A stretch of DNA of 63,608 nucleotides, counting the filler, from Hausera hauseri (lineage: Eukaryota), in assembly GCA_046269625.1 (NCBI GenBank). It is 13 parts of 13 records of this genome, joined end to end, with 100 filler letters (N's around TTAATTAATTAA, not from the genome) between each part and the next. Parts side by side here need not be neighbours in the genome. Positions count along the whole stretch, not along the records: positions 9,603 to 13,648 come from JBJURY010795979.1; 12 more parts are not named here. The stretch is one strand, 5' to 3'. This document shows, one piece after another, positions 9,503 to 54,734 of this stretch; within the stretch, counting starts at the first letter, position 1, and each line of letters starts with the position of its first letter. Under the pieces are notes generated by a model. It ran no database searches. It saw only the letters and a program-made list of their open reading frames with translations, and had not been told where the DNA came from. A program made the translations under genes and the position numbers.

Positions 9503-9602
9503 NNNNNNNNNNNNNNNNNNNNNNNNNNNNNNNNNNNNNNNNNNNNTTAATTAATTAANNNNNNNNNNNNNNNNNNNNNNNNNNNNNNNNNNNNNNNNNN
9601 NN
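9503..9602. other. artificial contig linker (44N-TTAATTAATTAA-44N); identical linkers at 13649, 18333, 22602, 27299, 31623, 36006, 40551, 44960, 49055, 53717, 58496
   Basis: An identical 100-bp spacer with stops in all six frames occurs 12 times. Confidence 0.99.
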
Positions 9603-11362
9603 GAAGATTGTTGCCTAATTCAACGTGATGTTTGTTTGTGTTGGTCACACGTTGTTTGTTATGGTTTCAGTGAAAGTAAAGACGGTGTCAATTTCTGGGA
9701 ATGCGATAATTGTTCAAATAAAAATTCAAATGATGATAGCAAACCGCTCGAATGGTACAGGGATAATTGGTGCTTCCATTCGGTTCTGAAAAACGAGCTT
9801 CCTTGGCTTTCGATGGCCATTCCAAATTACAAGAGTAGCATGAAAAATATTTTTAAAATGCATTCTTCATTGTCATTATGTCAGAAAGTTTTCGAGACTA
9901 TTGTAAAGCACTTTGATAAGTTACCGTTCAAAAATCCAAATTATTCCAATAGTCAAAATGGATTAGATTTATTGAAGGAACTTTACGCTTACGGAAATCT
10001 TGAAGATATAAATAAAATCGAAGCTCTGTAATATTTGAATCCTGAACAAGATGAGATGTTTAGACTGTCAGATAATGGAAATAATTCCAATACTGTGCAT
10101 TTTCCAAGTAATGCTAAAACTGAAGCATCCCTTCCAACAGATTCTATCAATTCATCGTCGATTATTAATCAGTCCGACTTTTCCTTCAACGAAAGCCATT
10201 TTTCTAATTCAACGCCAAACAAGTGTATCAACAACGGTCACAAATCAGTCAATACAAGTCTCGATGGAATATTCGATTGTGATATACAAAAACTCGATAT
10301 TATTCCAAAAGCGGACTTCGATGCCTTAGTTAAAGATTTAAATTCCTGCGACGACATTTGCAAACAGTCAAATACAAAACACGATAGTAAATCCAGTCTG
10401 CTGGATTTATTCGACGACGGCATTCAACCAAGTGCCCAAAACAAAACGTCCGACAGTACAATAACCGTCGTCGATTCAGTAATGCCTTTCACAAAGCCTC
10501 ACTGTATTTATCAGCATCATGAAAATGATCATCATGAACCGATTATTGATATTTCTTCTGACGAATTGGATAGTTTTTTATTAGACAAAGAATCAGTGGA
10601 TCTGGATAAATCCGATTGTAGCACTATAACCAAAGTGCGTCAAGATTTGAAAGTTAGTAAAGATTCCGATAATGATTTCCTATTTGAATCTGAGAGTAAA
10701 AGAATGAAGCCAGTTTGTCAACCGAGACTTACCAAAAAGCGGAAAGAAGTGCTGCAAAGGCGAAGGATGCGACTAACAATTCACAGGAGCGCATTGTTAT
10801 CGCTGAAAATCTTTTCAAGAAATGGAACTTGGAATTTGAAAGGAGGAGGAATAGAAGAAATGTTATCAAGATGAATGTGCCAGTTCAACTTGGCAATATT
10901 AGAGAAGCGAAGTGGCATGTGAATCTGGATAAACGCTTTGAAGTAAAAGCGAAAGAGAATAGGACTGAGGAGGATAAAGAAAAGTGCCAAATGAGAAGAG
11001 AAATTGAGCAGTTGAAGTTACATAACGGACACTTGCAGTAGCGTTTGGAAGAGCAAGCAAAAGTAATTTTTCGGTTGAGGAAAGAGAAAATGACAATGAA
11101 TGCTTCCACGCAAATATGTGAAAGTTATGTTGTGTCAACTTTGAAATTACCACAGACAGAAGGTGTCAGTCAAACGGAAAAGATGATGGTCTGTGAAAAA
11201 TGGACAGAGACAGTAAATCAGAATAATTTGGTAGAAGCAACAAATCAAACGATGATGTATGAGATGGCAGATAAAGAAATACAGACTGTGAAGTTGCAAG
11301 AAATGCAGGCTTGTAATGTGTATAAAAATTGCAAAATTGTATATAAGAATTATTATAAATAG
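9603..11362 (+). pseudogene. PHD finger followed by a low-complexity and coiled-coil region; interrupted by stops and a frameshift
   Basis: CLIQRDVCLCWSHVVCYG..FWECDNC is the C-terminal part of a PHD finger. ORFs 9636/10035 and 10715/11045 are each in-frame pairs split by single stops. Confidence 0.55.
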
Positions 11363-12039
11363 TTGAATCGTTTTGAGAGGATTACGGGTCTTCCTTGCGT
11401 AATTGTTTTCATTTCGGTTTTAGTGTTCACATTCTGAAAATTTCTATAATCATGAAGATAAGACATTCACAACGTATGGATGGATATGTATTTTATATAG
11501 ATTATTAAGCTAAAAATCCTATATAAAAAGAATACAAAAATTAAGCAAAAACTATATACATGTTACTAAAAGTAGTAATTATTGATTGGCTTATTAGTTG
11601 TTTGAGTTATTTATTAATTTATTTTTTAGTGGATTATTTACATGGTTTGTTTCAATTTTTCTTTATTTTAGACATTTTAAACGCAGCATTGGAAATTAGA
11701 TAGGGATAAAAAGAAGAAGGATTTGTTGCGTGAAGCCTTGGAAAAGCGTATGTTAAATCGTTTCGAAAGAATCACGGGTGCTCCCTGTATGTTTTTTTAT
11801 TTGTTTACTGTTTTTTTAGAGTGCTCCGGCTAGTGAAAGTGTTAAGTACTTCCTTGGCTATAAGGAGAAAGGACCGGTTCAGAAATACTCCCCTGATAAT
11901 GCTTGCGACTCCTATACGCAGAAAAATATGTGAAACGTCTGTGCAGACTGGTAGTGACGCGGGTCCGTTTCTCTTTTCTTGTTTACCCGATAGTATTCTT
12001 TCTCGGTTACAATCGAAATATCGTAGTTGCGCAATAAAC

Positions 12040-12900
12040 ATGTTAAGTCATCCTGGGAGTCGTAATTTCAGGCATTTTCTTGCCGTTGGTTTGGTATCTT
12101 CTGTTAGGCCGTACGATATTTACCTATATTATGAGGATTATATAATAGAGAAATTCCGTTATTTTCTGGTTACAAAAGTAAGGGGTGGCGATGGCGTACT
12201 GTATTTTCATTCGACTTGTTATAACATAAATCCTATGCGTCTGGACAATTTCAAAAATGTGTTTAAACTCCAGTGGGTCATTCCTTTTACTGATGATTTG
12301 CAGTTCATATACCGTTCCCATGCTTTCGAGTGTGGCGACGATCTTTACTTTGTAAATTGGGGGGGGGGGTATGACCGGTAACTATTGTTGATAAGTGTTC
12401 GTTTGATGTTTTGTATAGGAATATGTCTGAGGCTCCTTTCCTCCAGACGGCTTTGAAGTTATGTACGATGGGAATCGGCGGGAATTCAGTAATTCGTATG
12501 GTTCCATCAGCAGGTTTATTGGGCAAAAATTTAGGCAAAAGACATCTTATCCGAAATCTTACGTGTTTCGAATACCCCCTGTTCAGTTTAATTTCAAAGC
12601 TCAGGTTATGTCTTGTATGATTTTCGGGTGTATCGGGTCTAGTAAGACCTCCTATGCCTTGTCTCATGAGGTCAATTCCCTAATTATTAATAACCTTAAT
12701 GAATTCCCGCCGATGTGGGATTTCCCGCATGATATAATTGTGTTTGACGATATATAATTTATATAAGCTTACTGATTTTGCTGCACTCTCACAAGCGGCA
12801 ACTTGTAAAGTTCTGTACCGCATTTTGTACTTTCCTGGAAATGTACTTAGGTTTTTTGTTTTAACAATGAATCGTTCTTTTGGCCAAAGGATCAGGATTC
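12040..12900 (+). mobile_element. degenerate geminivirus/genomovirus-like Rep (HUH endonuclease + SF3 helicase); endogenous CRESS-DNA viral element
   Basis: In order: motif I-like RHFLAV, motif II-like YFLVTKVRGGDGVLYFH, GRS-like NVFKL, GDDLYFVNWG, central helical domain, Walker A-like MIFGCIGSSKTSYA, Walker B IIVFDDI, and motif B'/C-like CKVLYRILYFPGNVLRFFV. Frameshifts near the G11 run (12359-12369) and after DDI. Confidence 0.6.
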
Positions 12901-13059
12901 CCTTAATCGGGATGCCTGTAATAGCAGAAGTCTTTTATTGCGGTTATGGAATAATAAGTTTTTTAACCCTGTTGAGGATGATATTGCTTGTGGGGGTCGT
13001 GAGCTCAACTTTCTGGAGATGGTAGCAGAGCAAAAGGCTATTTTGCGGTAATTTTTAGA

Positions 13060-13648
13060 TGCAATGGCAACCGTATAATTGTTTGTTTAATGGAAAAGGA
13101 AAACTTAGCAACAGTTCCAGCGACCTTAAAAACGGTTGCTGTCGATATTGCCCCGGTTGCTATGGTGAATGAAGTGCCTGCTGCTGGGTGTAGTTACCAC
13201 GTTGACCCTAGTTACGTGCTCCTAGCATCGGTTCCGGAGGGATCTTTGAATATCGATGCCGATGTTGTGTGCCATGACGAGATGAGTCAAAATGACCTCT
13301 CGATTGCCATGCCAACCGATACGTCCGATGTGCTTGGTTCGACATATCCTGGTTACGAGGTTCCGGTACCTTTTTTGTTGGTAACGATGTAATAACCATG
13401 TATGTTTACGTTGTAAAGGTAAAAAAAGTTGACCATAAGGTTGCCGTGGCAACCGATAGGTCGAATATTCGAATGGTGTGATCCCCTAGCTACAATTCCG
13501 AAGGGTCGAATTCAAGTTGCGAAATCATTACCGGGGTCATAGAAACTGCGACGGAAGTAACCAAAGAGGACTATTCGATTGCCATGGAAACCAATGGGTC
13601 CGAAATCGCGGGCTCGATATCGAAGGGCTTGACCGCCTCGACCATTAC
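13060..13648 (+). repeat. degenerate coding-type tandem repeat (GATTGCCATG..AACC..T..GTCCGA; peptide SIAM.T..S)
   Basis: Copies at ~13300, ~13440 and ~13575, with weaker ones at ~13062 and ~13155. Confidence 0.55.
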
Positions 13649-13748
13649 NNNNNNNNNNNNNNNNNNNNNNNNNNNNNNNNNNNNNNNNNNNNTTAATTAA
13701 TTAANNNNNNNNNNNNNNNNNNNNNNNNNNNNNNNNNNNNNNNNNNNN

Positions 13749-15310
13749 ATGCACCTGTGAAATGGCAGTGATCCTTGACTTTCCAATTTTCCTTGGTGAA
13801 GGACTTGTCACACAAGTAGCATGATATTGCCTTGTGCCATTCTTGTTCTTGTATCCAAGACATGCTCATGTCGTACTTATGCTGCTGCAACATATCGCCA
13901 AGTCTATGAGCCATGTCTTCAAGTCTCTTCATGAAATGTGCTGCTGCACCTAGACCCCTGAATAGATATGGTTCACTGTCCAATCCTTTGGCATACATAC
14001 AATACTATGATATTTCGTGATATTGGTATGCCGTTGTACTGCTATGTTGACGACTGGAACTGAATGTATGAATTGTCCTAAGAATGGCTTCAAAGTCGCA
14101 ATAGATGACAATTGGGATCTGGATCTTCTCGAATTCTTTAAATTCGATATAGTCCTCTTTGGGAAATTCTGACCTTACACAATAATTGTTGTTACAGTAT
14201 TTCTTATGCTCTTTAAGGTTGTCCACGGCTTCTCCACCACTGAAATAGGACAAGCATCGTTTGCATATTTCGATTCCGTGTTCATGATTTTTTATTTGTG
14301 ATCTGACTAGACGCTCAAAATTCTTTATCCAAACATAATATTTCTTATCACCGTTGTCTAGTAGGAGCAGATTCCTATGATCTTCCAATGCACCATCACA
14401 TATTTGTAATGGGTAGAATTTGTCCTCCTGATTGAATCCAAAGATATTGACGGACATGTTGTTGATGCGGCTGAACTTCTTGATTTTATCTATGGATGCA
14501 GGGAATGTGATTGACTGAAAGTCATAGTTGTGTTGGAGATCATTATATAGTGAAACACGGTAAGCATGATTTACATACATTACGAGTTTTGATAGAATGG
14601 CATATATGAAGCACATGTTGTCATTGTTTTGAACATTGACGCATGCTTTCTTATTAACAATCCATTCCGGAAGCTGTATATATGAACTGCCTCGCATGGG
14701 GGAGTATCTGTGTACATATATAAGCAGTCTCTTGATTGTTGCCAGAGCCCATCCACTCTTCTTATCCTGGCTCTCATCGGCTTCACGGATCAGCGTCGTA
14801 TGCTCTTCATGCAGTTATTCAGCTATAATTGTGTTTTTTAATATGGGCCTATTTTTGGTCTTAAAGGTCTTATTTGATTCTTCAGCATCGACATTGACGT
14901 ATGTGGCCTCAAGTTTCATATTAACCTTAAGGGCCTTGAGCTCAGTTATATTGTCCTGGAGGATCCTCTCTGTTTCTTCCTTTGCATATTCCAAAAACTC
15001 CTTGATGGTTCTTTGCCCAGCTGCATCAATGACATATTTGCTGACTTTTTTTAATGCAGCAGCATCTACTGGCCTCTGTCTTTGGCTTTTTGATGGAGCC
15101 GCTACACCGGCATCTGAGGGGCCTGATGGGCGTTTTACTTTTGCGGGCTGTACTGCGGACTGTACTATGGACTGCATTGCGGATTGTACTGTAAATTGCA
15201 TTGAGGACTGTACTGCGGACTGTGCAACTGGCCTATGCTCATTAAATATGATCTTCTTGGATTTTGGTGCTAAATCAGTCAGATGATTCTTATGATATTC
15301 ATAGAACTGT
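13749..15310 (-). pseudogene. Polinton/adintovirus-type protein-primed PolB, N-terminal part (subfamily A)
   Basis: SGWALATIKRL..KYSPMRGSSYIQLPEWIVNKKACVNVQNNDNMCFIYAIL; CKRC..H..YC zinc finger; IVIYCDFE exonuclease motif I; CYLC..KVKDHCHFTG endonuclease-VII-like insert. Confidence 0.9.
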
Positions 15311-22701: not shown

Positions 22702-25700
22702 AATGTCTACTGATTTATTATTGATTTCCTTTGTTATATTTTCCACCTCGGATTTTATTTTTAGTAGTATAATGATTGTTATTTCTGTGAGTATTGTGAC
22801 GAGGATAGTTCGTCGCATGGTAATGTTGTAACTTAATCCACTTATGAGTTCCGATACTTGGATTATTAAAGAATACATGTGTCATTTGGAAACGCAATAG
22901 CATTTGTTTTCCTTTAATTCTGAATGTGCGACACAGATGGATCTGTATGATTCAAACAACGTTGCTGCTTCCTTTTCGTGTCCTATGGGTTTGTTTGTAT
23001 ATGCTATTATTAAACATTTCTTCTCAGGGCTATAATGGATAGATTCGTTAGTTATTCTTTAATTCGAATCTTGTATTTTTTGGTAGTTTCAAATAATCTC
23101 GAAATATGGTGCGTGATTTTCGTTCACTATAGTAAGTTGGAGTTAGATATAATTTCAATTGAGGTGTTGAGGTTATTTGTGTCAATAAACCTGGTATACA
23201 CATCGGTAATATACATCAGAATTTATATTTACATAAAGTTGTGCCCATCATAATCGTGAAAATATTGATGGTTATTAGTAGAGCTCTCTCGTGGTTCATG
23301 GAAATATATCTGTTAGTTTTGCTGCATAAGGTCTTTTCTGTCCATATTGAACCTATCTGATTCCTTAGGCATTCCGATTGTGGAAATAATTGTCTAATAT
23401 GATCAATTGTTGATTGTCTCGTAATTTCTTGGGGCTTTGCTGTTGACTGTGCCAATACATTGGTCATACATAATGCCAATGTACATGAAAATAGTACTGC
23501 TTGACTAAATTTCGGTTTCATGCCTTGATGGTTTATCGAAACCATTTCGCTACATGCATGATTATCTGATTCAGTGGGGTTTTTATTCGTAATGGATTCT
23601 TCTTTTGGCGTGGAATTTCATATAAGTTGACTTAGTTTATTAATATTTTTATCTACTTTTACCCAAGATTCCTTGTCTATGACGGGACCTATAAATTTAT
23701 TTCCCTTTTTCTTTAAGTGTCTGCTTATGTCCGTAATTTGCTTATGTATTTTTGTTAGATACTGCAGATAAGGCATTGTAGTCACAGGGATTTCTTCCGC
23801 TGGTAAGTCTATTAAATAATCTGTTAAATAATCTCCTTCATTCTGTAACAAGTCAACATGTGTCAATCCTAAATAAGCAGTGATTCTGCTGGTCCATCGG
23901 GCGCAGATTACTCCATTGGGGTTTGCTCCATATATTTTAGCAAGTGTATCCAATCTTGCATCATATAATTGTACTGATCGGTGGTAGATTTCTATGGCAT
24001 TTATTTGGGTTATTCCAATTATTTCGTCAGTTACTTTCATTCCTTTAGGTTGATCTCGTTTTCTATTGAAATTATAAAAGAGAACTTGGATCATATATTG
24101 TCGGATTCTTGCGTGTTGAATTCGGGTGCTAGGACAAAGTTATTAATGTAGAAGTGATCCACCATTCGTTGTAATAAGTTCTGTTTTTCGTATTCGTTAA
24201 GGTAATAGAAGTCGTTCAGGTATTGGCTTTTGATCCAATTATTTGTTCTTCTTGGTATATTCTTATGATTCAGGCCTAGTTCCCATATGACTTAGCATAT
24301 CTATCTCTCGATTTCTGGAGTTGGTTAGGATATTGTGTCTTGGCACCTACACAGAAGCTTTGTAAATAGGATTTTTCTATCAGTAATCCTTGTTGACGGC
24401 AGTTGCATACTCTGTGATTTGTTTGCACAACATATTTTAATTGGTTTGCTGGAGTCTTCTTCCGTGATCATTTTTCTCCGGATTAAAATATCTGAATAGT
24501 TATCGGCACATCTCTTCATCATACCATAGTAATGAAAGTCAAAGCGTAACACGGGATTATAAGATCGGTATTTTTCCATATCAAATAAATAATTTAGTAT
24601 AGCTTGTTTCTCTTTTAAGATTTCGAGGTTCCCTTCTCTTATACAATGGATAAACTGCCTTTGCCATTTCCTTTTGATGGTTTGCTCGCTTTCTAATTTG
24701 CTGACATTATGAAATATCCTAGGGTCATGTTTCGATATTTTATGCGTTTGGATCGGGGTTCTATTCAATGGTAATGGATAACTTTATTGGTTTTACCGGA
24801 AGGTTGATTGTAACCTGTATTGTAATCGTTAATTATTGTTTGCATTATTCGATTATAACGAGTGCATCTCGAATAGCCTTGGAACTCTAACTTAGTGTTA
24901 TTGAAGGCCATCAAACATGAGTGAATTTGTACGTACTGTTGAATGGTTTGTTTATACATTGTTACATAATGTAACAATCGGGTTGTCCAAATTTTATTTC
25001 TATATTCTTCTTTATCATAACCGCGTCTTACAGCCCAATATAGTAATTTTCCTATCGTATTATTTCCATATCCACAATCTATATATTGCTTCAGGGGATT
25101 GGCCTCTTTTGTACATTTCTTTTTCCATTGGTAAGTATGGAGCGTTGCAATTTGCGTTTGTTCATGTCTTATACTCTTTGGTTTCATCCATTCCCTGTCA
25201 AGATGTATAATTCCTAATGCTAGTTTATCTTTTAATTATTCATATAAAGTATTTTGACTCCGTGTCGTAATTCTTCTAGTATTTTCAGCTTTGATTTTAG
25301 CAATATTTTGAAATATTCGGTTTTCTCTTCAGGGTCGTTTTCAACATTTTGAATCTTCCGCGTCAAAAGTCCGTTAATTTCGTGATCAATGCCACAATCC
25401 TCCACTAGATAGTTGAGTATTTCTATGTCTTGAGTTGAGATTTCCGAATATTTAGGCTTATGTAAGACTATATTAAGCAGTTGAAAAACAGATGTATTCC
25501 ATGTGGTAAATGATGAAAAAAATTATGCATATAAATTGAGAGGGTTGGTTTTCAAATATTGTTGGGCCCCTAAGGCTATAATTTTAAAAGCATAAGCATC
25601 GCCTTGTGCGAAATATTGTTTTTCGACGTTATAAACAATTGTTTTTAAATAGTTGTAGTCTGGAGACTGTCGTTTACCTGGAGTTCTATTAATTTCCCAT

Positions 25701-27298
25701 AGGAATATGCGTAATCAGGTTAGCTTATGGCTCATTTCAACGTCTGATTTCGTTGATACTTCTCTAGTTGGTTCTATTTCAATGCTTTTAGTTTTCTGAT
25801 TTTGTAGATATTGTTGGCGAAGGGTATGATTTCATTTCGGTTTCGTTGTGGGTGTTGATCTTTTAGATTAGTAATTTCACATTCTATGTCCAAATCTTGA
25901 CTCAGTGACTTGTTTAACATTCGTAATAAATGCGTCATTTCATGTACTTCGATTAATCGGTCGACATTATTCTTCTTGTAAAGTTTGAATCTTTTTATTA
26001 CTGATGCTATATATTTGTATGACGAGCTGCCCCAGGTGTTTCCTTTCGCTGTCTCACTGTTTCCTATCGCATTGCATGATTTTGATAACAAGAATTTATC
26101 TTCTGCTGGCATTTCCTTGTAGGTTTTGCCGAATTCCAGCAGTATTGTATCAGTGACTTTTTAAATGTATTGTTCGCAGAAATGATATATTTATCTATTG
26201 CTATTCCATTTGTACTTCTCTATCTTCCATCCAGGGTATATCGTCTAATTCAACACTTGGCCATATACGACTCTTAACAGTTTCTTTTGTGGGAACAGTC
26301 GATGATTCCTCTGCAATTGTTGTATATGAGAGTCTTTTGACCATGGGTTCTCGGTCGTTTCTACTTCGGGTATCATGTAGTTTTGAATAATCTTTGGGGC
26401 TAATATGGTAGGTATTGTACTTAAAAATTCTTCCCTACTGGCTCGTTTTTTCTTTTCCCATTGCTGTGAATCGAATTAATTCGGTTAGTTGTTCAACAGT
26501 GTATATTGCTAATACGTATGATAGAAATTTTACATACTTCGAATAGCCTTGTTCACTTGAACTGACTGTTTGGGCAGTGCAATTTCCGATTAGACAATAT
26601 ATTACCAGGGTAGACAGAAGTATTGGGTTTGGTCTACCATAGTTTCCTTGGTTTTCCTCATAAATAGGAGATGGTGACTGTTTGGTTACCTTTTGATAAT
26701 ATTTTACTACTCGGCAATATTTATAAAATGTTACTACTATTAAATCGACTATAGTGCTGCTAGCTAAGCTTATTAGGAACATTAGCAACGGAAATGATAT
26801 ATAATCCACAAGTGGTAGGGTAGGTATTTTGGAGGCTATTCCTTATTGGCTGTTTCCACGTTTGACATTAGTTGCTTTCCTCTTATTACTTCTCTCCGTA
26901 TTTTATAATGTTTCTTGATTAGTACTGCAGTGTAGCTAGCTAGTGTGAAAAGAAATGATATTAGTAACATTAGTGATATTATGTCCCTTATTTGATTGTA
27001 CACATACGCTTCTTTGTTACATGTTCCAGCTTTAACAATAGGTATTAAGCTGCTTCCAATCATAAATCCACTGGTTGTTGGTAATATATCTCGCCCAGTG
27101 GAATTAAATTGTTTATATCGATTGACCTTCTTGTTGAAAAATATTATCGCACCTATTATAAGACTAACTAGAAGTGTCAATATTACTGCAGAAAGAGTGT
27201 ACTCTAGTATGGATGTTGAAGAGAATATTGGTTTATTTGCTCGTATTGTAATGTTGGTAGACGTTTCTGCGTCAGCTTTCTTAACTATAAGTGATGGC
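22702..27298 (-). other. decayed co-oriented orphan polyprotein region with repeated signal-peptide/TM segments; probably retroelement cargo
   Basis: Back-to-back minus-strand ORF pieces across 4.6 kb with an A-rich coding strand and no introns. Hydrophobic segments end in LIPIVKA|, LIGNCTA|Q and MTNVLA|Q. FN3-like VSELISGLSYNITM near 22800-22860. Confidence 0.5.
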
Positions 27299-36105: not shown

Positions 36106-36412
36106 AATATCAAACCGGCGAAATATGATATCTTTCCGAAAAAGATCAGCGGCGATAATTTGGATACAATGGAAGACACAATTAGAAAAGTTGACAGTGA
36201 TTTAGTGTTTAGTAACGATATCCGAGATACATCATCGATTTTTCACAAAGGAAATATTGCAAAAATTGTCAGTTCACATGGCGGAGAAACAGCAGAGGCA
36301 GTTATGTCACTGGAAGGAGCTAAAGGCTACCTAACACTGAATTTCAAATGATTCAATGAAACGAGCGACGTCAAATCCCAATATGGAAAATGGGGAAGTT
36401 TACTATAATTTA
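36106..36412 (+). pseudogene. small conserved gene convergent with PolB subfamily B; possible OB-fold ssDNA-binding protein
   Basis: KKISGDNLDTM..DSDLVFSNDIRDTSS..KGYLTLNFK; homologous to 53340-53716. Confidence 0.55.
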
Positions 36413-36709
36413 ACTGACTTACTTTGTGTTTTTTGAGATTTATTTTTTCTCGGACCAATAAAAAAATGAATTCATGTTACATATTTTGTTTTCTCGTACA
36501 AGGTTGTTGTATTACTTTTACTTTTATCCTACTTGATAATATTAGGTTAAGTAAGTAACCGAAAGCAAAACACAAAAGACACTGAACAAAGTACATTATT
36601 AACATTTAAATAAAACAATTTACAAAAAATAATTGTCAATAATTGTCACAATATCAAGGCCATATTGAATTGCCTGTATCCCATCTGATCTGGCACCACC
36701 GAACGTGTT

Positions 36710-39700
36710 TTATTTCAACCTCCAATATCCATACGTCTAAGTATTATTTTGCCCGACCCATTTTCGCTTACCATTGCAACATGACAAAGCTACTTTCGCA
36801 ATATTTATTGTATGCAGCTGGTGCTGAATTGATCGGATGATCGTTCGAGACATAACAGCCTTTGATTGTCCTCCTGCTGCTGCTACTTTATATATACGGC
36901 GGTAATCACCGTGGCCGATTTTCGTCTGTCTCCGTTGGACTTCTTTTGCCCGCATTTCGGTCCACAGTCCGTCAGAAGACTGAAACACTTTGGACGTAGG
37001 AATATTTATTCTCGATACCGGATACGACCTACAATTTCATCCTTGAAGCAGCCGATTTTATTGGCTATGAAGCTGCTGTACAACGGATGATCCGGTGAGT
37101 AGTTAAACGTGTCCAGTAATCTATCTGACAATATTTGCTGTAGTAGCTGTTAGCGATTAACTCTTTTCAGTTGCAGAAAAAAACTGTCTGTGTCACAGGC
37201 AATTATGTCAATATTGTAGCCGTTAAACATTTGCCGGCAACGTGCCAAATCGCGATACTGTATCTCATAGATCCGCAACTTGCTCAGGTCCAATAATACT
37301 TGTTTGATGTAGCTTGGCCAGTCCAGAACGAATTTTTCCCTGTTTAATAGCACCGCAACCAATCCATCGGCAATGTGCATTGACCATCGAAACAGTGCCT
37401 TGCTGGTGTACGTATACAGTCGCTTTTCCGATTTCCATAGGCGCACATTGAGTTGCTTTTTCAGATTCCACACTGTTTTACCGAACATGGAATTGTTTTT
37501 CAGCTTGTCGTAGTCCTTTTTGAACTTTGTACAAGCTGTGACTCGTTTCTCCGAATTTCCATCTATGTACGCCTTGAGCATAGGAGTCTGAGCAGATCGG
37601 ATTACACGATACGGCTGTGTGACGCATACACCTAGCTGCATGTAGAACTGTAGCAGACGCCAATGGACCACGTACTTCAGCTTCTGTTCATGCGTTATGA
37701 GCAATTTCTTTACCTTTGAGTCTGGCGGACATAGGTTAAATGAATCGACCGCTAAATCGTCAAAAACTTCATGCAGCTCATCTGGTATCTCGATGCCATG
37801 CCGCCGCGAATACGAACATCAAACAGTCTGTACTTTTCCGGGTCTATCAGCAGCTCAGTGTCTCGATCCAGTGACATTAGAGCTGACGCCCAACTCATTC
37901 CCGGTATGGAATAAAAGTTGAGTGGCTCCAAGCTATCTTCCACTAGCAATAATCCAGCATGTAATCCAACGTGTTTTTACGGCCCAGCTCTGGCCAAGAT
38001 TCTTGTGATCTACGATATTCATTTTTTGCGATACCTGTCCATCACGGCGGTAATTCTTCTGCTGTCCGGAGTCGCCCATATGATGTTGCAAAGCCATATG
38101 GAAATATGCCTTTGCTGCGTGCAATATGTGCAGGAAATTGCGTCATTGCTACCGGTACATCTTGCAAGGCATTTACCAGCTTTACCAATTATTCATTGAG
38201 AAATTGCAATGAATCAAGGATGCGTACATGGAACCGGTTTATGCGTGCTGACAGGGACACGTACTTCTCTATCGTTGTTGGGATTATAGACAGTTTCCAG
38301 TGTGGATAGCCGTCAGTGGCTCATTTTAGAATATGGTGACAGTCATATCCTCAAAAATTATAAAAGATCACCGGCAGAAATGGTCGCACTCGTCTTGCTG
38401 AATGGCATGAATTGCATGCTCCTCCGAAATATCGACCGGTGAAATGGTCGTGATCCGGTATGAGCCGTTTCTGTGCATAAAACGGTATTATTTTTCTGCA
38501 TGGATAGCATTCATCGGTGACAGCGAAAAGCAATGGTTGATATTCGTCTGCCCAAATCAATGGCTTATTGCAATTGTCGCGATACCACTGTGCAATTTAC
38601 GTTTCCACTATGGTTTCCAACTGCTACAGGAAATCACGTACACAATTCTAACCATGGAAAACGTAATACTGCGGTTGTCCGGAGGCTTCTATTGGAACTA
38701 GAAACATACCGACGGCAATTAAAACATGCTTTTGATCGTATACATTGTGTTGTGGTAGAACTGCTTCTATATCGGCTTACATCACATATGCGCGACTGTC
38801 TGTTTTATACCAATCACTGAATCTGAGCTCCTTTTTGACAGGCATAACGTACATTGTTGTCCCTAATGCGTGTGCCTGCATAGCGTGATATGTTTCGCCC
38901 ACGTTGTTTCCGATATAAATCCATGCAGACATATAGAACGCCATTTGCATCGTATTCGCTTTTTGATGAAATGACCATGCTTCATGTTCAACAGTCTGTC
39001 CAGATTTGTCACTGCCACGTAATGAAATTTTTCAGTCTGCTCCAACGGCAAGAAATTTACCGAGCTTTCATTCGGGTTCGACTGAAATAAATTATGTCCA
39101 CATAGGAGTTCTTATAAATTTCCTCGTCTTCCGGTATTTCATCTACTGTGCTCTACAGGAAAATGTTGATTTACAGCGTCGGAATACGTCATTCAAAAGC
39201 AAGAATGGTTTACAGTTTCAACGGCATTCAGAATTCATCAAATTGCAATTCGGATAAATACTGCCGATACTGATTTAAACGATTTTCATGATATCTGTTC
39301 ACTTCGATGTACTTCAATACAGCCAGAATACTGTACAGAAAACGGTATTCGTCGTCGTCATTATTATGTACATTCACTACCGCCAGAAACTGCTTTAGAG
39401 ATGCAGGCGTCGGTATGAATGATCGTCCACACAAATATACCACGTCACTTTACTTTGGTATGATAAAGCCGAGTGTGACAATTCGTACAATTTGCCATCA
39501 ACTACCCTTTTCCGTATAGCTGGCGATTTTCTCCTCTAACTTTTCGCTTACATCGGCAATATATCTTCCCAATACGGTACGGCTCGATGTGATAGATACC
39601 ATTGTTTCCTGTCACCTTCAACGTTTTCAAATTATCAAGTGCATAATATTGCACTTTGCAGTTGTTGAGTTTGAATTTCGCCACTTCTATTTCCAACCGG

Positions 39701-40370
39701 CTGAGCATACCGGACAGAACATGACTCAACTGTAGTGTTGTTGTCCCCGACATGTTTACTTTCACGTCCATGTACGATTTGTTTAGATCGTAATAGACAG
39801 TAATGGAAGGTTTCTACTGTTTCATCTGCTCATGCCGCTGCTGTTGTTCGGTACTGTTTTGGGTTAAGTCCTCAAGATTTGCTGAGGCCTGACGTTTCTA
39901 CTTGTTGAGGGGATACTGGTTTTTCTTGTCGCCATCACTGTTTCCATTTTGGACCGCTGAAATCGGTTTAAATGGTCTGTGTGCTGGTTATAAGATTGTT
40001 TATAACTGATTTCATTAACTATAGAACAACCGGGACAAACGTAGGCCCGTTTACCGTGCCCCGTTTTGTCGCCATAGTACTGCTCCATTACACTATGGCA
40101 ACCATCAACGTCATGCTCTCTACTACTACTACTACAGTATCGCGTGTATGTGGGACAACGCACAACCATCATCCTCTTTGCTCGTGTAAACTGACCAAGA
40201 TTATGTTTGCATATCACGTAAAAGTCTGGATATGGACAAGGGGCCAAAATACTACCGCATGTTGGACACAAATATGAGTCCATGCCAACGGAGTAATATT
40301 AAGCCATATGCTGATGGCACTGCTCCTGCTCCACATGTATGCGCGAGACGCAATATATAGAATATTGGTT
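36710..40370 (-). pseudogene. Polinton-type protein-primed PolB, near full length (subfamily B)
   Basis: Two N-terminal Cys/His repeats; GRSFIPTP..VVNVHN; PDHDHFTGRYFGGACNSC; PVIFYNF..GYD; IRGG; KLKNNSMFGKT (motif B); DTDS (motif C); FLRPKCFS; KRKWV..YGYW end. The motif A region appears deleted. Confidence 0.9.
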
Positions 40371-40650: not shown

Positions 40651-42830
40651 CACGCGGAGTAAAGAGTTCGTCCAAAATGATGTCTCCTTCAATATCCGTA
40701 ATGGTTAATTCTACGAGGGTTGTCTCTTTGTTACGTAATATGGTTAGAAGGAAAGCAGAATTTGTTGCCAGTATGGCTATCTGGTCCTTTGATTTAAGCG
40801 GAAATCTGGAGAAGGATATTCCGGCTGTGAGCTGATCACGATTAGGTAAATTTGATGGATATATCGGCTTTTCATATTTGATCTGAGGGAGGGTTTCTCT
40901 TCGCGTGACTTCGATGTATATTATCGGAGATGGGCTTCCATAAGTTCGTAAAATGATTGTCACATTTCGATAACACTTCTTATCAAAACGAATCGTAGTG
41001 TAAGCTGTGACATCTAAAGTGTCAATGAAATCATTTAAGTGTGCTCGACTTTTTATTTGAAGATTGCCTTTTGCTGTAGATACAAAGACTGACGTGGTTT
41101 GACTGGAGATGTCAATCAAATCTGAGAGTTTTGTAGAAGTGTTAGGCAGTTTCATTATCAATCCGGATCTTTGATGGAGAAGATGGCCTTTTAAGTTATT
41201 GGGTATGAGATTCGCCTTACCGTAGTAGACATAATCTTTGTTATCTGTTTGATTCAAGTTGCTAATAATGTTATAATAAAAAGATTTGGTTCTGTCCACA
41301 AGTTCGGATCCTTGATGATTTAGAGATGGGAATATAAATAATGGTATTCTTTAATTTAAAGGTTTTGTGGATCGCAAAAAATTTAGTGACTTTATTCTGT
41401 ATCTTTGTACAGTAACACAGTTATGTCTGTTGGTTGACAACCTTGTCGTTTGCTTGTTTGATTTTTATTAAGGAGACTTAATGGGCAGTCTTGCCATTCT
41501 GGGTTAGTCAGCTTTTTAGCCCATGGCTTTTGGGTTGACGGGCAATTTAGCCGTTTAGGAGTATGTGGAGTTTTATCTTTGGGCGCACTTATTTCCCCTG
41601 TTAACATATTTTGGGATTCTTCTTTTAAGAGTCTTAACTGGTTTATTATTTTTCTTATTTTGCGTCGTCGTTGTCTTGTTTTTGAATAATAGATTGTTAA
41701 AGGTAAAAATATTATTAATAGTATTAAAATAACACAGTATATTGATTAGGGGTTTCTCCTTGGATTGGTATGATAGTTGTTTTCATAACTTTCTTTGTGA
41801 CAGTCATATGTGATTTTAACGTTTTTTCTTTCTTTCTAAGAACTTGTAGGATTTGTCCGTCTTCGTCTAGCTCTGTTATCACAATCTTATAATTAGTGTC
41901 GGGTTCCAGGGGAATACAGGCCGATGTTGGTTCGTCCGGAGTTAATACTCCTTCACTGACTACTTTATGACTTGAATGACACTCAAATTTTATATTCGTA
42001 GTCTTTAAATCAGATGATGTAATAACCAATGAATAGGTTGTCTGTTGAATGAATATATCTAATTCTTTAATAGCTTTCTTGGATTCCGTTAGTGATATTA
42101 TTGAACTACTAGGTTGCATTGTCGAAATGGTCCTTTTCTTTGTTAAAGTGGTAATTTTGTTTGTTAGAGATCTTACTATTATTTCTGGACCAGGTTTGAC
42201 CATTGTACGTGGTCCAATAGTATATCGTATACTCTTTATCAAAGACAATAGGACAACATATATACGGATTTTGGTGGCTCGGTTGATAATATATGCTATT
42301 AGTTCCATCAAATATCTCGTATTTATGTAACGCGTCTCGTGATTGCAACATCGGGTTCCACTGTTACACAAGGTCCATTTTTCATGACCTTGGTGTAAAA
42401 TCAAATAAGGAAATATGGTTGATTAAAGTAATGAGTAATACCGGGATATGAAAAGTATGTTCTGTAACTTTGATCACTCTTTCCAATTGCATATTGCATC
42501 CTGTACGTTTTTCCAAACGAGAGCCCACAACAAATATGTATTGAATGATTGTGGTACAGATCGCAGTTTTCTGGTGTTGCTTTTTCTACTGTAAGTAGTT
42601 TTGATATGAATATATGTATATATTCATCTTTTGTTAAATTCCGATTAGCTGTAATTTTTATACAAGGGTATTTTCCAACTTGGACGGCCTTATATTTCAC
42701 ATCGAGGGTCTGAGCTGATACGCAAGTCACTAGACTTAACATCATGAGCGTTGCTATCAGTAATAGATTAGAATTTCCATTTCTTATTCTTGAATCCGTT
42801 GGTGCAGGCTTGCATCTATTTACATGGAAT
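40651..42830 (-). pseudogene. cargo region 3' of Gypsy integrase: signal peptide, FN3-like domains, TM + basic stop-transfer, cytoplasmic tail, possible DEDDh exonuclease start
   Basis: HVNRCKP..NLLLIATLMMLSLVTCVSA|QT in one frame; CGLSFGKTYRMQY and PLEPDTNYKIVITE; VILILLIIFLPLTIYY-SKTRQRRRK; LVELTITDIEGDIILDELFTP. Confidence 0.6.
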
Positions 42831-44959
42831 TTTATTGGGTGTATTTTTGTTTCTTTTATTCTTATTCAAATAGACGTTTGTTTTATCTACTTTTTGGATC
42901 ATATACAGACATTTATATGGTCTATATAATTTCGGCATCTTGCCTTTCATGCTCAGACGTGTGTATAACAAAACTTTGTCTCCAGGCTTAAAATTGTGTG
43001 ATTTAGCTTTTTCATCGTAACGTTTTTTTATATTCCTTTTGACATATTTTTGTATGGCGTGAAGCTAGATTCCATACATAACCAAGTTTTTCTTCCAATA
43101 ACTCTTTATACTCCATGTCTTTCAGGTGGGAGACGGGCATTTTAAAATCTATATCAACTGGCATGTGAGTATCCCTAAGATACATTAGGTAAAATGGAGT
43201 TTTTTTCATCGCAGGGTGAATTGTGTTTCTGATTGCAAATAAGCATAGTTTGATATATTCGTCCCAATCATCCTGTCGTTCATTGACCATTGTTGCCAAC
43301 ATATTGGTTAAAATTCCATTAAATCTTTCTACTGTTCCGTTGGTCTGCGGATGATGTGGAGTGGTTTTCAGTTGTAGTATTTGAAATATTTTTGAAATCT
43401 CTGCCATTACTTCTCCTGTGAAGTTTGGGGCTTGATCCGTTAATAATTTAGTAGGTGCTCCGTAATTAAACACAATTTCTTCGACAAACGCCTGGGCGAT
43501 TGTCTGAGCCTTTTGATCCGGTATTGGGACCACAACTGGCCATCTGGAGAATAGGTCGACAAATACTAACATGTATTTGTTTCCATTTATTGTCATAGGT
43601 AACGGTCCTAGAATGTCCATGGCCGAGAATTCCATTGGGGCTGGTGGACATTCTATTGGTTTAAGAGGAACTTTGATCTTTGAACCAGTATTCCTTCTAG
43701 TGGCACAAATTGGGCAACTCTTACACCAATCTTGAACGTCTTTAGTCATAGTGTGCCAATAATATTTTCTTTTTAGTCTTCCTAAGGTTCTTTTTAGTGA
43801 TTGATGACCTCCCGTCATGCCATCATGATATTGTGTCAATAACAACTTTATATCTTCTTAAGGAACAACTACAACTAGTTTTCCTTTATGGTTATAATAT
43901 AATACATCATCCCTTATTTTATAATTTTCAGCGAAGCTTTTTAAATTGGCGTAAAGATCTGTGTCATTCTGTATTACTTTTCCTTTCAAAAATTCTTTAA
44001 TTTGTTTAAGTTGTTCATCATTTTGCTGCCTTTGCAATAATGATTTCTCTTGTCCTGTGATGCTCCATATAGCTGCTATAACACCTGGTTTATCTATGGA
44101 TTTTCTTTCAGTTTGATCTATATCTTCTGGTATTCTAGACATATAATCCGCATTAGCATTCGCTTTTCCCATTTTATATTCAAATTGCAGATCATATGGC
44201 TGGAGCAGCATAACCCACTTCATTAGTCGACTATTCGGATTTTTGTAATTTTTCAACCACTGTAACGGTTTGTGATCAGTATAAATGATAATAGGTTTAG
44301 TTTCTGATAAGTATTGGCCATATTGTTCCAACGCGTAAACTATTGCAAGTAATTTACGTTCGATTGTTAATTAATTCTTCTCGTGTTTTCTTAACTTTCT
44401 TCCTCCGAACGATATCGGATGTTCTTATCCTTGATCATCCTTTTGTGATAGAACAACTCCTATTCCGACTTTGCTGGCATCCGTTGCTAAAAAATATGGC
44501 CTTGACATATCTGGATACGGTAATATAGGCGGAGCTAATAGATTATCTTTTAATTGTTGGCAAGCTTTTTGACATTCTTGAGTCCAAACAAGTTTAGAAT
44601 TTTCCTGTAGTAATGAATGCAATGGTGAAGCTATCTACTGATAATTTTTAACAAATTTTCGGTAATCGCCTGTGAGGCCAAGAAACTTGCGAACTCCCTT
44701 AACCGTCTTCGGGNNNNNNNNNNGACTGGAAAATCTTGAATTTTGTTTATCTTTCCTATTTGGGGACTAATGCATTCTCGGCTTACCGTATGGTCCAAAA
44801 AGTCTACTTTAGTTCCGGCAAAACAGCATTTCTTTAAACTAACTTTTATTCCTAGAAGTGCGCATCTCTGTGGCATATCCTTAAGATGTTCCTTGTGCTG
44901 TTTGTAATCAGTTAATGCGATTATTACATCATCTACATAACACATTATGTGTGGAGCAT
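42810..44959 (-). mobile_element. Ty3/Gypsy pol (RT YVDD, RNase H, integrase)
   Basis: CYVDDVII; LATDASKVGIGVVLSQ; YTDHKPL; HDGMTGGH..YYW..CKSCPIC; MDILGPLP; LTDQAPNF; HPQTNGTVERFN; SH3-like tail. 10-N internal gap at 44714-44723. Confidence 0.95.
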
Positions 44960-45059: not shown

Positions 45060-45512
45060 ACAAACGTATCTGGATATATTTAGAACATCCTTGTACAGAT
45101 CGTCAAGATGTTTAGATGTGGCGGCGACTAGAAAGCTTTTGCACGTGTACTCGGATGCTAACCAGAATTCCCCGAGCTGATTTACAGATTTCTGATATAC
45201 TGACTGATAGTCAACGACATAAACAGAAGAATTGGGAAACGGCTTTCCAAGTTCAAGTACCTCAAGAGGTGTGTCTGCTACATCTTGAGTTTCAGTGATC
45301 CGATTATTTCGAAGCGCAGCCTTATCGTGATACACTGTCCTTAGGTAACTTGATTTTGGTATCTGCGGAAACAAACCCAACGTCCATGGGCTAACAATCT
45401 CAACTGAAAGGGTACATAACCCAAATTTTGCATCATCGAATATGTTCTGAAAATCTCGAATTAAAGCTTGATTTGGTCTGTTATTGACACAAACTGTTAG
45501 TGACTTAACCTT
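45060..45512 (-). CDS. DIP2: DIP2-like AMP-binding domain fragment (third part of fusion ORF)
   Basis: VKSLTVCVNNRPNQALIRDFQNIF..TVYHDKAALRNNRI..LELGKPFP..LGEFWLAS parallels DIP2 EERPRIAL..F..TVYVD..ALR.DRV..ESGK.LP..GEIWV.S. Confidence 0.65.
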
Positions 45513-46545
45513 TTCCTGGTTATAATTTATGTCGTAGACATATCTCATAGCAAACATTTTCCCTAATGTGCAATTCATAATAAAACCTAACACTGCCAAC
45601 ATAAAAGCATCATAAATAATGATTGGCCACAATCTGACATCTGGAACCATTGGTGTTGGCAAACCTTTCGGAATGGGTCCGACGATGTCAAATTTGAACC
45701 GACCATTGAGATTAGCAAAATAAGAAATAACGGTTGCGATAACAACCACGATAAACTGAATGGGAAATGGAAATTTCAGCTTTTTCTTGATAATAGGATT
45801 TATGTAATCCTGAAACACAGCTAGTAGTGCAATACAAATTGCTGCAGTTATGACTGTACCCCAATTGATTTTCGGAATATTCGCGCAGAACAGATATAAT
45901 TTATATGGTAATTCTCCAATATTATTATAGTTTTTAATTTTGTATCCAAGAAGAGAACTCAGTTGAGATAAAATGACATGGAACGCAGCACCTGTTGTAA
46001 AACCGCTAACAAGAACGTCAGACATGTAATTCATTATAAATCCCATTTGGAAAATGCCTAAACCAAGCTGAATAATACCAGCTAACAGTGTAGTGGCAAT
46101 AGAAACGGAAAGTTTTGCACTGTCATAGGTGTGCAAAGATCCATTTAAAGCCGTTGAATTATAGTATGATTGAACATAATTCGTTTCTCGGAAAACGGGA
46201 ATACTTGATAGCAACGACATTAATGAAAATGTACCTATTGAAAGATGTCTAGAAGTTCCAAAAAGCGCATATACCAAAGAAGGAAAAAATGACGAATACA
46301 ATCCATTTACCGGCTGCAATCCGGACAGCAATCCGTATGCTAATCCTTGAGGAATGTGAAAAACCAACATCGTAATGCCAGCAATAAAATCATTCACTAA
46401 AAACTTCCATTTATAATATGAACTTAAAATAAATGGAAACGGTAATATTAATCTGAATGTTGATGCAATCGAACAATCAGTACGGCTTATTTTTTTCTTA
46501 GCTGATTTGATAAAACTGAAGTGGTTGTCATTTTTGGGATAAATG
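45513..46545 (-). CDS. SLC26/prestin-like anion transporter TM domain, cut at NQE (second part of fusion ORF)
   Basis: DFIAGITMLVFHIPQGLAYGLL..GLYSSFFP..FGTSRHLSIGTF; GFTTGAAFHV..SQ; GPIPKGLPTP; YDINYNQE. The last TMs and STAS domain are missing. Confidence 0.92.
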
Positions 46546-47807
46546 AAACAACTGTTCAGCATATCATAGATGTCCACAATTGTGATAGTAAAATATTGAT
46601 TTTTGTACCCTACACCCAAAACCAAACGACGCACATCGTCTACGATCGTCCATCTGCAGGACGTCACTTCAATATCATGCATGCGCAAATATTCGACAAA
46701 ATAATCGTCATATGACATATCGGAATCTACAACAACTTCATTCTCATCTCCATCTCTTATTGTTATAGCGAATTTTTGACAAGACTTGGACGTATCTGTC
46801 AACGATTTGGAGAAACAGAGTCCGACAGAAAACACCGGCAAATCACAAAGACCTTCGTCAATTTCGTGGAACATCTGAACAATTTGCTGCGCAGGTGAAC
46901 AAGAGACGAAAAACGGTATGCGTTGATTTTCTGATTGTCTATTAAAAAGACAGATCGATTCAACGTCAATCTCATCGCTATCGTATTTCACAAGTCCATA
47001 CGAATCTTGATAACTCTCCTGGAACACGTAACACCTATCCCGTGAATTACAATCCTTAAATTGCGGTAATATCCACAGTTGGCCGACGATATAGTCGCTA
47101 ATGCAATTCATCCTAGCAGCATCATGCATTTGAATCCATTTGCCAATCCATGACGACACCCAGTAACAATTCCCACCAAAGTTTAATGTTTCAATGACGT
47201 TATTCTTATCCGATGATTGATAGTCAACAAATACATAAGTCCGAGAACCGTCTAATTCAAACCGCTTTTCCTGAGACCTGAAACCAGTTGGAATATAAGT
47301 TCGGTAAAGATCGGCATTGAATTGGCGAACATCAAATAAAACATAATTTGATTGTGCTGCCATTTCTTCGAGTTGCCATGAGTTACCGAATTCTCTATCT
47401 GCAACATCAATATTGGTTCCGGCTTGTCCTCGACAGAGACTGACACAAATAGAACCATTACTGGTAAGCAAACCGGATCCTCTAATACTTTTGAAAAAGT
47501 TTTTCAACAATTTTCTATTGAAGCTAATATTGCTTTTTCCACCAACATGCGGAAAATTAAAAATAATTAACTCGAATTCACATTCAAACATGGAATAGCT
47601 TAAGTCTGTTGCATCAACACAAAATTTAATAATACCTCCATCGTCCTGAATTGATGTGATATTTTGAGCAGCATTTTTATATTTATTAACAATTTCGTTA
47701 TATGTTTCCAAACAAGTGCAAATTACGTTTCTCGTAACAAATACTGATTGTTCGCATACACTTATACAGAATGAAAAATCTCCATTTCCAAGAATTAAAA
47801 TAGACAT
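46546..47807 (-). CDS. FDXACB1: FDXACB1-like (DUF2431/Bmt5-type rRNA methyltransferase domain), lacking the C-terminal FDX-ACB domain (first part of fusion ORF)
   Basis: MSILILGNGDFSF; VDATDL; IIFNFPHVGGKSNISFNRKLLKNFF; LCRGQAGT..NSWQLEEMAA; YIPTGFRSQEKRF. Confidence 0.85.
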
Positions 47808-49154
47808 GCTGTGCAGTTTTGAATTTGACAACGAAGAAAATACTATAGTAAAATCAACATGTGTATTGAGAAAAATGTTGTAATGAGAAAATTCGGTCAT
47901 TAGAGTTGATATTTGATGATTTACAACAAAATTTGGTCTATCAGTGGAATAAAAAAATAATTTGAATTTTATTCTACAGCATTTATAAATAACGTTGCTT
48001 TTTATATATTTATTTGTATGTATATATATTTGGGGAACATAAAAAAAACTGTGTGGAGTTCTATAAACAAAAACAGGACTCACCGTGCAATTCTGATAAA
48101 GCATTGACATAATGTCGAAAGTTTGATATGCCAAATGTATTTCCAAGACTGGACATCTTCGAGGAGCAAAATTCTGACACCAGTTGTTGGTTTTTGTTGC
48201 CAAAAAGTCCTTATTGAAGCAATACAATGTTTGGAAGAAGAATTTGAATCCAAATGGTGAACCTGACAGACTAAAAGCATAAAATAAATCCTATTGAGCA
48301 CTACACCCCGCTTAACTAAAAATCGATGAAATATACTCGGAATAATAAAGAATTTATTTAATGCACATCATTTATAAAAATGTAGATTTCCCATTTAGAT
48401 TTATCATTTAAGAACTATTCAAATACACATTAAAATTATTCTACTGAAAGAAAAATTACTAAAATAGACAAAATGTATTATAAAAATCCAAGAATTTAAT
48501 TAGTAATATACGTATTTATCGATCAAAAACCACTTAGAAAACATGAAAAAATTATTTTTGAAATTAATTTTGAAAAATGAATGAAGAAATACATGTCAGA
48601 GTCAATTCCATTTTCCACAGATATAGGTTAACGTCTCGTATGGAATTCTATTAGTATTGAAAAAATGGACAGTAACAGATTATAGAATTCAAATCCATAT
48701 TCAAACAAATTTTAACACAAGGACAGAACAACCTTCAGTCAGATATAAACTGATTCTTGGAAAACATGTTTTCAATGGTATGAAAGTATGTGATGCCTTC
48801 TATGACAGAGAAGAACATGATTTAGTGGTAAAACTGGACACGAATGATGTGGGAAAATGCGCAAACTCCATCGGCGTATTGGTCACATAATTGGATGTTT
48901 AAAGATACGTTTATTTGTATGAAATGTCATTAAAATTTAGTGTTTTATTAGTCTTTTTCATGTAATTGGCAAACACACACACAGTTATATATATTTATAT
49001 ATACATGTAAGATGGAATTATTTTACTTTTTAAAAATGTTTCAAACGCCAGACCNNNNNNNNNNNNNNNNNNNNNNNNNNNNNNNNNNNNNNNNNNNNTT
49101 AATTAATTAANNNNNNNNNNNNNNNNNNNNNNNNNNNNNNNNNNNNNNNNNNNN

Positions 49155-53105: not shown

Positions 53106-53339
53106 AGCACATGCACAGTCAGTCAGCTCAGACGAAAACAGTCAGATCAGTACAATTTATAAACTGACTCTCTGTTATTTGATTTTGTAAATAATGTATA
53201 TTTGTTTCACGTATTTTGTTTTATCTTTTTAATTTAACGTATTATTATTATGTAAGGTGTTTAATAAAAATAACGAATTAAGAGAAAAGTAAAATCAATA
53301 ATTTATTAATGATAAAACACAAAAGGCAATTCAAATAAA

Positions 53340-53716
53340 ACTAAATTTACCCAATTTCCACATTGGCTATTTAACGCCACACAAGTCTTTGTAGCCTTTT
53401 AATTTCAGCCTCAGACAGCCTTTAGCATCTTCGGATGGCAACGTCGTCACTTCTGTTGTTGTTGTTTCGTCACCACTTGAACGGATAATTTTTTTCATAT
53501 TGCCCATGAGAAAAAAAGATGACGTATCCCTAATATCATTGGACAACACCAAATCACTGTCAACGTTTTCATCGTATCCAAATCACTGTCGCTGATTTTC
53601 TTTGCCAACAAACCGCATTTCACCTGTTTGAGTTTAACCGGTTGCGCCAATGATAATTGAATAGACGTTCGTAGGTAGTTCAATTTGTAGCCATTGTACA
53701 ACCGAGACGGTCTGAC
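53340..53716 (-). pseudogene. small conserved gene convergent with PolB subfamily B; possible OB-fold SSB
   Basis: KKISDSDLDTM..LVLSNDIRDTSS..KGCLRLKLKGYKDLCGVK*PMWKL; homologous to 36106-36412. Confidence 0.55.
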
Positions 53717-54595: not shown

Positions 54596-54734
54596 TCGAA
54601 ATTTGCACTGTGTAGCACATGGTTTTCAACTAAAACAAGGTTTTCCAATAAATTAAAATTATTTAAAAATCCATAAACGAGACAGTGTACGTTGACATGG
54701 TTATCTTTTATTATTTCAGAAATCACTTCCAAGA

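Follow-up and report, generated by a model that had tools for sequence, protein, structure and literature searches.

Endogenous Rep genes of small circular single-stranded DNA (CRESS) viruses are well-known fossils of eukaryotic genomes. Liu et al. 2011 (PMC3198968) list 302 endogenous sequences of Rep and 3 of capsid from 35 eukaryotes, note that in some copies the flanks match each other as closely as the Reps do, which they read as segmental duplication, and propose that integrated Reps are able to act as selfish elements. Rep-only repeats are known in tobacco and yam, where the GRD and EGV elements have been amplified in the host (PMC5014472). Among the viruses themselves, Geminiviridae and Genomoviridae (virus group names after PMC6668415) encode a Rep in which an HUH nuclease, an oligomerisation domain and a superfamily 3 (SF3) helicase follow one another, and Rep chimerism has been described in unclassified CRESS viruses (PMC5923481). 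Replitrons and Helitrons are further examples of multi-copy DNA in eukaryotic genomes that encodes an HUH protein (PMC10288648).

Here we describe a Rep remnant that shares features with several of these systems. As in the endogenous CRESS Reps of Liu et al. (PMC3198968) and the circovirus-like elements of an isopod (PMC4231630), the Rep has no capsid gene, contains stops and frameshifts and occurs in several copies, and its flanks are about as diverged as the Rep. Unlike known endogenous CRESS Reps, it has a helicase of an unclassified group, with best free relatives only 26-29% identical. The helicase signature, the domain order and the length of about 300 amino acids are those of unclassified chimeric-Rep CRESS viruses (P0004 cluster, see below), from which the locus differs in being a remnant without capsid and origin hairpin, not circular and with broken frames. 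Its putative HUH, oligomerisation and SF3 domains follow in the same order as in the Reps of Geminiviridae and Genomoviridae; in contrast to these, the gemini-type nuclease profile scores at chance, there is no nonanucleotide hairpin and no intron is needed between the domains. As with the plant GRD and EGV elements (PMC5014472), a Rep without other viral genes has been multiplied in the host. The terminal inverted repeat (TIR) transposon of Tuber melanosporum likewise repeats an interrupted Rep together with non-viral genes (PMC3198968), whereas neither a transposase nor a terminal inverted repeat is seen on the contig described here. The locus is multi-copy and holds a putative HUH remnant, comparable to Replitrons and Helitrons, and its SF3 helicase rules out both: as described in PMC10288648, Replitrons have a Y1 Rep without fused helicase, and Helitrons a Y2 Rep with an SF1B helicase.

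Contig and Setting

The window, which is the whole stretch of DNA that was analysed (63,608 nucleotides), consists of unplaced contigs, mostly 4-5 kb long, joined by N-linkers. The Rep remnant lies on one unplaced contig of 4046 bp (9603-13648), bounded at both ends by assembly linkers (9503-9602 and 13649-13748); 12 such linkers, each made of N44, 12 bases and N44, occur in the window. Since the Rep sits on this single contig, the remaining window is no true neighbourhood. No second Rep copy was found within the window. The features of the contig are as follows.

9603..13648, no strand: Rep contig, delimited by the linkers at 9503-9602 and 13649-13748
9603..11362, plus strand: decayed PHD-like/coiled-coil gene (ORFs, read-through with X at stops, Pfam PHD_5)
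11362..11819, plus strand: splice-like region with a duplicate, T-rich acceptors and an intron candidate (from sequence only)
12040..12378, plus strand: putative HUH nuclease remnant, best fit circo/nano type (glocal aged-profile test)
12379..12430, plus strand: linker with the first frame break (frameshift-aware alignment)
12431..12757, plus strand: oligomerisation helices, Walker A and Walker B of the SF3 helicase (profile search, alignment)
12762..12851, plus strand: segment from Walker B to motif C, in a different frame (four-sequence profile)
12851..12970, plus strand: motif C, Arg-finger region and end of Rep homology (profile search, alignment)
13050..13648, no strand: diverged tandem array of 137-138 bp with a 14-nt palindromic core, running off the contig end

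Other contigs of the window carry eukaryotic genes (RIO1, an IBR/RING protein and a sulfate permease). Judging only from the genes on these contigs and from transposon debris recognised by eye, the host is probably an invertebrate animal. A repeat family with 66-76% identity is spread over five contigs (13749-15101, 36110-40358, 49157-53631, 54703-58334 and 60054-63430); by eye its ORFs look like decayed Polinton-type protein-primed DNA polymerase genes, and Pfam gave no match. At 45060-48290 (minus strand), a single open frame of 1077 codons matches both a BMT5-like methyltransferase (E 1.5e-37) and a sulfate permease (E 1.9e-72); with no stop between the domains, it is either a fusion or two neighbouring genes in frame. 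The AT-skewed contigs at 22702-27298 and 40651-44713 (-) carry, by eye, pieces resembling integrase and RNase H followed by ORFs without annotation, and are possibly retroelements with extra genes; four pieces taken from them had no Pfam match above the cut-off.

Helicase Half and Whole-Length Alignment

One frame was read through with X at stops and scored against 1.84 billion proteins (E <= 0.001). The helicase half has 4 matches, 3 of which are CRESS Reps with E-values of 6e-5 to 4e-4; these library-wide values are the unbiased figures for helicase homology. The three Reps are 26-29% identical to the query over 150-175 residues and carry Viral_Rep or Gemini_AL1 domains, and the P0004 cluster is named "Periparus ater CRESS-DNA-virus sp." (UniRef/nr). 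The fourth match (P0002, a serine racemase repeat) was dropped as a repeat artefact, and P0006 was left out of later sets as a member of P0004's cluster.

From the seed matches we gathered 72 natural Reps into a profile. Among 2602 window segments, the piece at 12431-12754 ranks first with this profile (E 6e-8), and the piece at 12851-13048, which falls where the profile predicts, ranks third (E 0.097); neither score was reached by any of 500 shuffles. The end piece with motif C is 46% identical to P0004 over 26 amino acids. The ORF piece holding 12762-12851 does not reach significance by itself, with 14-32 of 500 shuffles scoring as high, and this segment between Walker B and motif C is shorter than in relatives. 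The oligomerisation helices align to natural Reps, as do, in order, Walker A (12626-12649, with Ser at the Gly position), Walker B (12731-12751, followed by a stop at 12755), motif C (12851-12868) and the Arg-finger region (approximately 12914-12928); residues are altered in several of these motifs. Rep homology ends at approximately 12970, while the frame stays open to 13051.

A frameshift-aware alignment recovers a complete Rep of approximately 305 codons across 12040 to about 12970 on the plus strand, with three frame breaks. The 305 profile columns are placed on 12049-12967 as a colinear nuclease, oligomerisation and helicase arrangement of about 300 amino acids. Whole-length alignment scores are 31, 22 and 29 with three profiles, versus means of -45, -37 and -34 for 40 other stretches each, among which the best score is -21. 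With a four-sequence profile the frame breaks fall near 12360-12430, 12760 and 12851; the first lies between a G-run near 12359-12369 and 12430, and a stop at 12379 ends the nuclease piece. The helicase homology, the colinear full length and the breaks establish that the Rep is real and dead.

Several standard searches returned nothing further. The Rep pieces have no Rep family in Pfam or PHROGs and only chance matches among PDB sequences, and Rfam gave no match. For the piece at 12431-12754, a word-indexed search returned 19 candidates, none of which scored, and a search of plasmids 3 chance matches; its 28-residue match in viral contigs (L001) was taken as chance and kept out of later sets. 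Querying viral contigs with P0005 and P0004 gave no match.

We also observed a 19-nt inverted repeat inside the Rep (12474-12492 and 12696-12714; 18/19 complementary, arms 203 nt apart), which is matched by 1 of 150 triplet shuffles. Judged by eye, the second arm is a poor fit to the Rep profile; a template switch may therefore have left it there as a scar.

Putative Nuclease Half

The piece at 12040-12378 was missed by Pfam, PHROGs, PDB, Atlas (best score 0.85, an unnamed entry), local HMMs, hhalign (probability 0.2%) and fold search: AlphaFold without alignment reached pLDDT 50, and Foldseek of this low-confidence model found nothing at E <= 0.001. MAFFT placed the piece on the helicase of full-length Reps. 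We used a glocal test of our own, in which profile columns aged by neutral mutation are scored against codon shuffles and other window stretches. With a profile of 33 circo/nano-type domains the piece has a z of 3.6 (0 of 300 codon shuffles and 4 of 300 other window stretches as high), versus a chance-level z of 0.1 with a profile of 124 gemini/genomo-type nuclease domains (137 of 300 as high). The circo/nano-type profile gave z 2.1-4.0 against shuffles in all 9 of 9 settings, the gemini/genomo-type profile -0.1 to 0.7. When a first run of the test was made without ageing, the piece was matched by 2 of 60 shuffles and by 14 of 60 stretches taken elsewhere. Small clade profiles gave z 1.6 for the P0004 group and -0.1 for the P0005 group; a match to the P0005 nuclease seen by eye thus failed its own test. 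The circo-type alignment puts the tripeptide YFH on motif II (HxQ) of circo/nano-type nucleases. Conserved residues are lost in the motif II region (12178-12210), and the motif III Tyr lies at 12310 or 12319, according to the profile.

These scores weakly suggest a nuclease remnant at 12040-12378 that leans towards the circo/nano type. A Rep of gemini/genomo type is not supported by the profiles; decay may hide a match to a divergent gemini-type nuclease. The helicase cannot settle the nuclease type, because its relatives carry either one: among 47 scanned, 23 have Gemini_AL1, 16 Viral_Rep and 8 neither. According to Kazlauskas et al. (PMC5923481), approximately 71% of Reps among unclassified CRESS viruses are chimeric. 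Two observations count against the circo/nano type: P0005, the best single helicase match, has a gemini-like nuclease, and a quick tree of 71 rows and 105 columns, which took in no named gemini- or genomovirus helicases, places the window Rep near P0005 on a long unsupported branch.

The initial annotation had read the locus as a hidden geminivirus-like Rep with a full ordered motif set. The Rep itself is borne out by the helicase matches and the full-length alignment, and the order of the motifs by a colinear remnant that runs slightly past 12900; the oligomerisation helices, Walker A and B, motif C and the change of GKT to SKT were likewise recovered. The label "geminivirus-like" is not. A profile match was found for the SF3 half, and neither standard profiles, hhalign nor Foldseek found one for the HUH half, in which only the glocal test speaks weakly for a nuclease and YFH, taken as an altered HUH of gemini type, falls instead on the circo/nano motif.

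Upstream Gene, Splice Signals and Tandem Array

Upstream of the Rep, on the same strand as the annotation had it, lies a gene fragment (9603-11362) with a PHD-like finger, of which only the C-terminal half is present, cut by the contig start at 9603. Pfam PHD_5 matches the fragment with E 0.0064-0.03, below the curated cut-off. The gene also holds an acidic low-complexity linker and a coiled-coil-like stretch (judged by eye). Stops interrupt its frame at 10029 and 11039 and the frame shifts near 10750, which leaves it no less broken than the Rep. The top Atlas entry for it is a MULE/SWIM/PHD cluster, with a score of 0.76, which the calibration supplied with the tool puts at chance. The last ORF of the gene (11100-11300) has several TQT-like motifs reminiscent of dynein light chain binding sites. 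A short AT-rich stretch at 11317-11362 shows very high summed depth in the sequencing run X1, with loose ends on both sides, and is probably a small abundant repeat inside the 3' region of the PHD gene.

Splice-like signals occur between the two genes, in keeping with the short introns suggested earlier. A 47-nt exon-like segment is duplicated (11362-11408 and 11752-11798, 72% identical), T-rich acceptor candidates lie at 11629, 11671 and 11819, and there is a 33-nt GT-AG intron candidate at 11787-11819, whose removal creates a stop at the joint. Within the Rep we reject an intron. The linker between nuclease and helicase, about 28 codons by hand count, is as long as that of P0004, so that no intron is needed between the two; neither the second nor the third frame break is bridged by a GT-AG pair that has a pyrimidine tract, and splicing across the first from either of the two donors ahead of the stop at 12379 yields the wrong frame.

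Downstream of the Rep, the array at 13050-13648 contains a 14-nt palindromic core 4 times, versus 0.15 expected, and the core is found only there within the window. The core resembles the X-box of RFX. The 137-138-bp array is multi-copy in run X1.

Viral Parts and Relatives

No capsid gene was found on the contig, as the annotation had stated. We searched the contig with 886 non-Rep ORFs from the loci of relatives; the 6 matches at E < 0.01 per query, the best of them in the low-complexity linker, include none that is capsid-like by position. No match to the nonanucleotide motif patterns was found in a hairpin loop at 11300-12045 or 12960-13300. The contig shows no virus-host junction and, by Pfam, no transposase domain; it is cut at both ends, and no termini or target duplication are visible on it. 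Free relatives of the Rep are contigs of 2-5 kb, most of which have a second ORF whose Arg-rich start looks capsid-like by eye. When the longest additional ORF of each examined locus was read by eye, none of the loci showed the PHD-Rep layout. A metagenome scan returned 9 loci with 28-38% identity over the best segment and no close relative.

Copies of the Locus

Among public runs, X1 alone matches the stretch (55% of words) and may represent the source sample; there are no RNA runs among those that match. Of 132 X1 contigs aligned, 23 are at least 99% alike, 18 are 95-99%, 30 are 90-95% and 61 are less than 90% alike (91 below 95%). The 8 pieces listed of 133 aligned cover the PHD gene, the spacer and the Rep; 2 are near-identical and 6 are diverged by 7.7-15.2%, 5 of the 8 by 8-10%. 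The flanks are thus multi-copy at a divergence similar to that of the Rep. One piece, from a diverged contig (11835-12107), begins in the spacer, crosses into the start of the Rep and shares about 200 bases of non-Rep upstream sequence, so this junction is common to at least one other copy. No piece bridges the PHD gene and the Rep among the 8 of 133 listed, the longest aligned piece being 693 letters. Diverged copies of the locus therefore exist in X1, and the recurring PHD-Rep linkage that had been raised as a question was not seen among these pieces. Part of the variation among copies could stem from highly polymorphic alleles within a pooled sample.

Indels between the window and the other copies fall inside both genes, which means that the frame breaks are not all shared by the copies. 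Among 40 of 425 variant rows listed, 18 are coding differences, and 10 of these are synonymous versus 33% expected for transitions (p of approximately 0.04; 5/8 in the PHD gene and 5/10 in the Rep); the rows are few and not independent, with frames assigned by the analyst, and give a hint only.

Discussion

We consider it probable that the locus descends from an unclassified cressdnavirus whose Rep became endogenous, was amplified together with the flanking sequence and has since decayed. The old endogenous virus of the initial annotation accordingly survives as a CRESS Rep pseudogene, set between debris of a spliced gene and a tandem array. In this reading, the rep gene would have entered a eukaryote chromosome from a small circular virus with single-stranded DNA whose lineage is unclassified. 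By homology, the ancestral Rep may have worked like that of a circovirus or nanovirus: as in other members of the family, its Y1 HUH nuclease would nick and reseal the circular origin, its helical domain would build a hexamer and its SF3 helicase would unwind DNA (PMC10288648, PMC5923481). A block comprising the Rep, the PHD/coiled-coil gene and the 138-bp array would then have been copied a few times, passively, either by segmental duplication or as the passenger of a host repeat, and this copy would have decayed until it encoded no working Rep. The integration, the passive amplification and the host group are what we infer. The 10 of 18 synonymous differences count against a purely neutral duplication, which does not predict them.

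The synonymous differences are of more use to a different idea, that the locus is a dead copy of a self-mobile, capsid-less rolling-circle element in which an HUH-SF3 Rep travels with a PHD/coiled-coil gene that is spliced, and the palindrome-studded array serves as its origin or terminus. Such an element, in our judgement unlikely, could use its PHD gene to target chromatin. It would represent an undescribed family of elements in an animal genome, an improbable eukaryotic HUH transposon that, unlike Helitrons and Replitrons, keeps SF3. The PHD gene, spacer and Rep do lie on the same strand and have diverged to a similar extent (by 8-10% in 5 of the 8 pieces listed), one piece joins the spacer to the Rep start, the synonymous excess appears in both genes (5/8 and 5/10), the breaks within both are not all shared and the contig has no capsid. 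However, no PHD-Rep bridge is found among the 8 of 133 pieces listed, the longest of 693 letters; the contig is truncated on both sides and displays neither termini nor a target duplication; the count of synonymous changes rests on 18 of 425 rows with frames assigned by the analyst; and the layout is absent from the relatives examined, with no second copy in the window. Our literature search found no paper on a transposon joining a superfamily 3 helicase, HUH and a PHD finger. The earlier suggestion that the Rep is cargo of an undescribed element therefore keeps its multi-copy flanks of Rep-like divergence and lacks the linkage and the termini. If the Rep is cargo, the carrier might also be a known type of host DNA transposon, e.g., a MULE-like one with a PHD finger, whose transposase lies beyond the contig start; the cut PHD finger, the MULE/SWIM/PHD cluster as best Atlas row and the geminivirus-like Rep in the TIR transposon of Tuber melanosporum (PMC3198968) point this way, but a 0.76 in the Atlas is no better than chance and the contig is without transposase domain, and we give this carrier little credence.

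If closely related viruses had integrated several times independently, and the PHD gene and array were unrelated repeats that happen to lie next to this Rep, synonymous differences among Reps would likewise be expected; independent integrations of similar viruses have been described for the salmon louse and Varroa (PMC3198968). We regard such a history as very unlikely, given that the diverged contig at 11835-12107 shares about 200 non-Rep bases upstream of the Rep start and that the PHD gene has the same divergence and the same synonymous share. The least probable proposal, and to us a highly implausible one, is a domesticated Rep that serves the host in fusion with the PHD gene or spliced to it. 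The two genes are co-oriented with splice-like signals between them, but the three frame breaks and stops of the Rep, together with the broken PHD gene, disfavour domestication of this copy; its motif II and Walker A residues are altered, the intron candidate makes a stop at its joint, and the frame breaks find no suitable splice pair, the first-break donors being in the wrong frame.

As an endogenous Rep of an unclassified cressdnavirus, the locus adds to a well-known class of fossils one whose virus of origin belongs to an unclassified group. For the unclassified chimeric cressdnaviruses, which are known only from metagenomes, it will supply a single link to a host as soon as that host has been established. 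The finding would carry more weight if the PHD gene, the Rep and the array prove to move as a unit; it would then be a testable case, with the viral helicase retained, of the selfish integrated Reps proposed by Liu et al. (PMC3198968).
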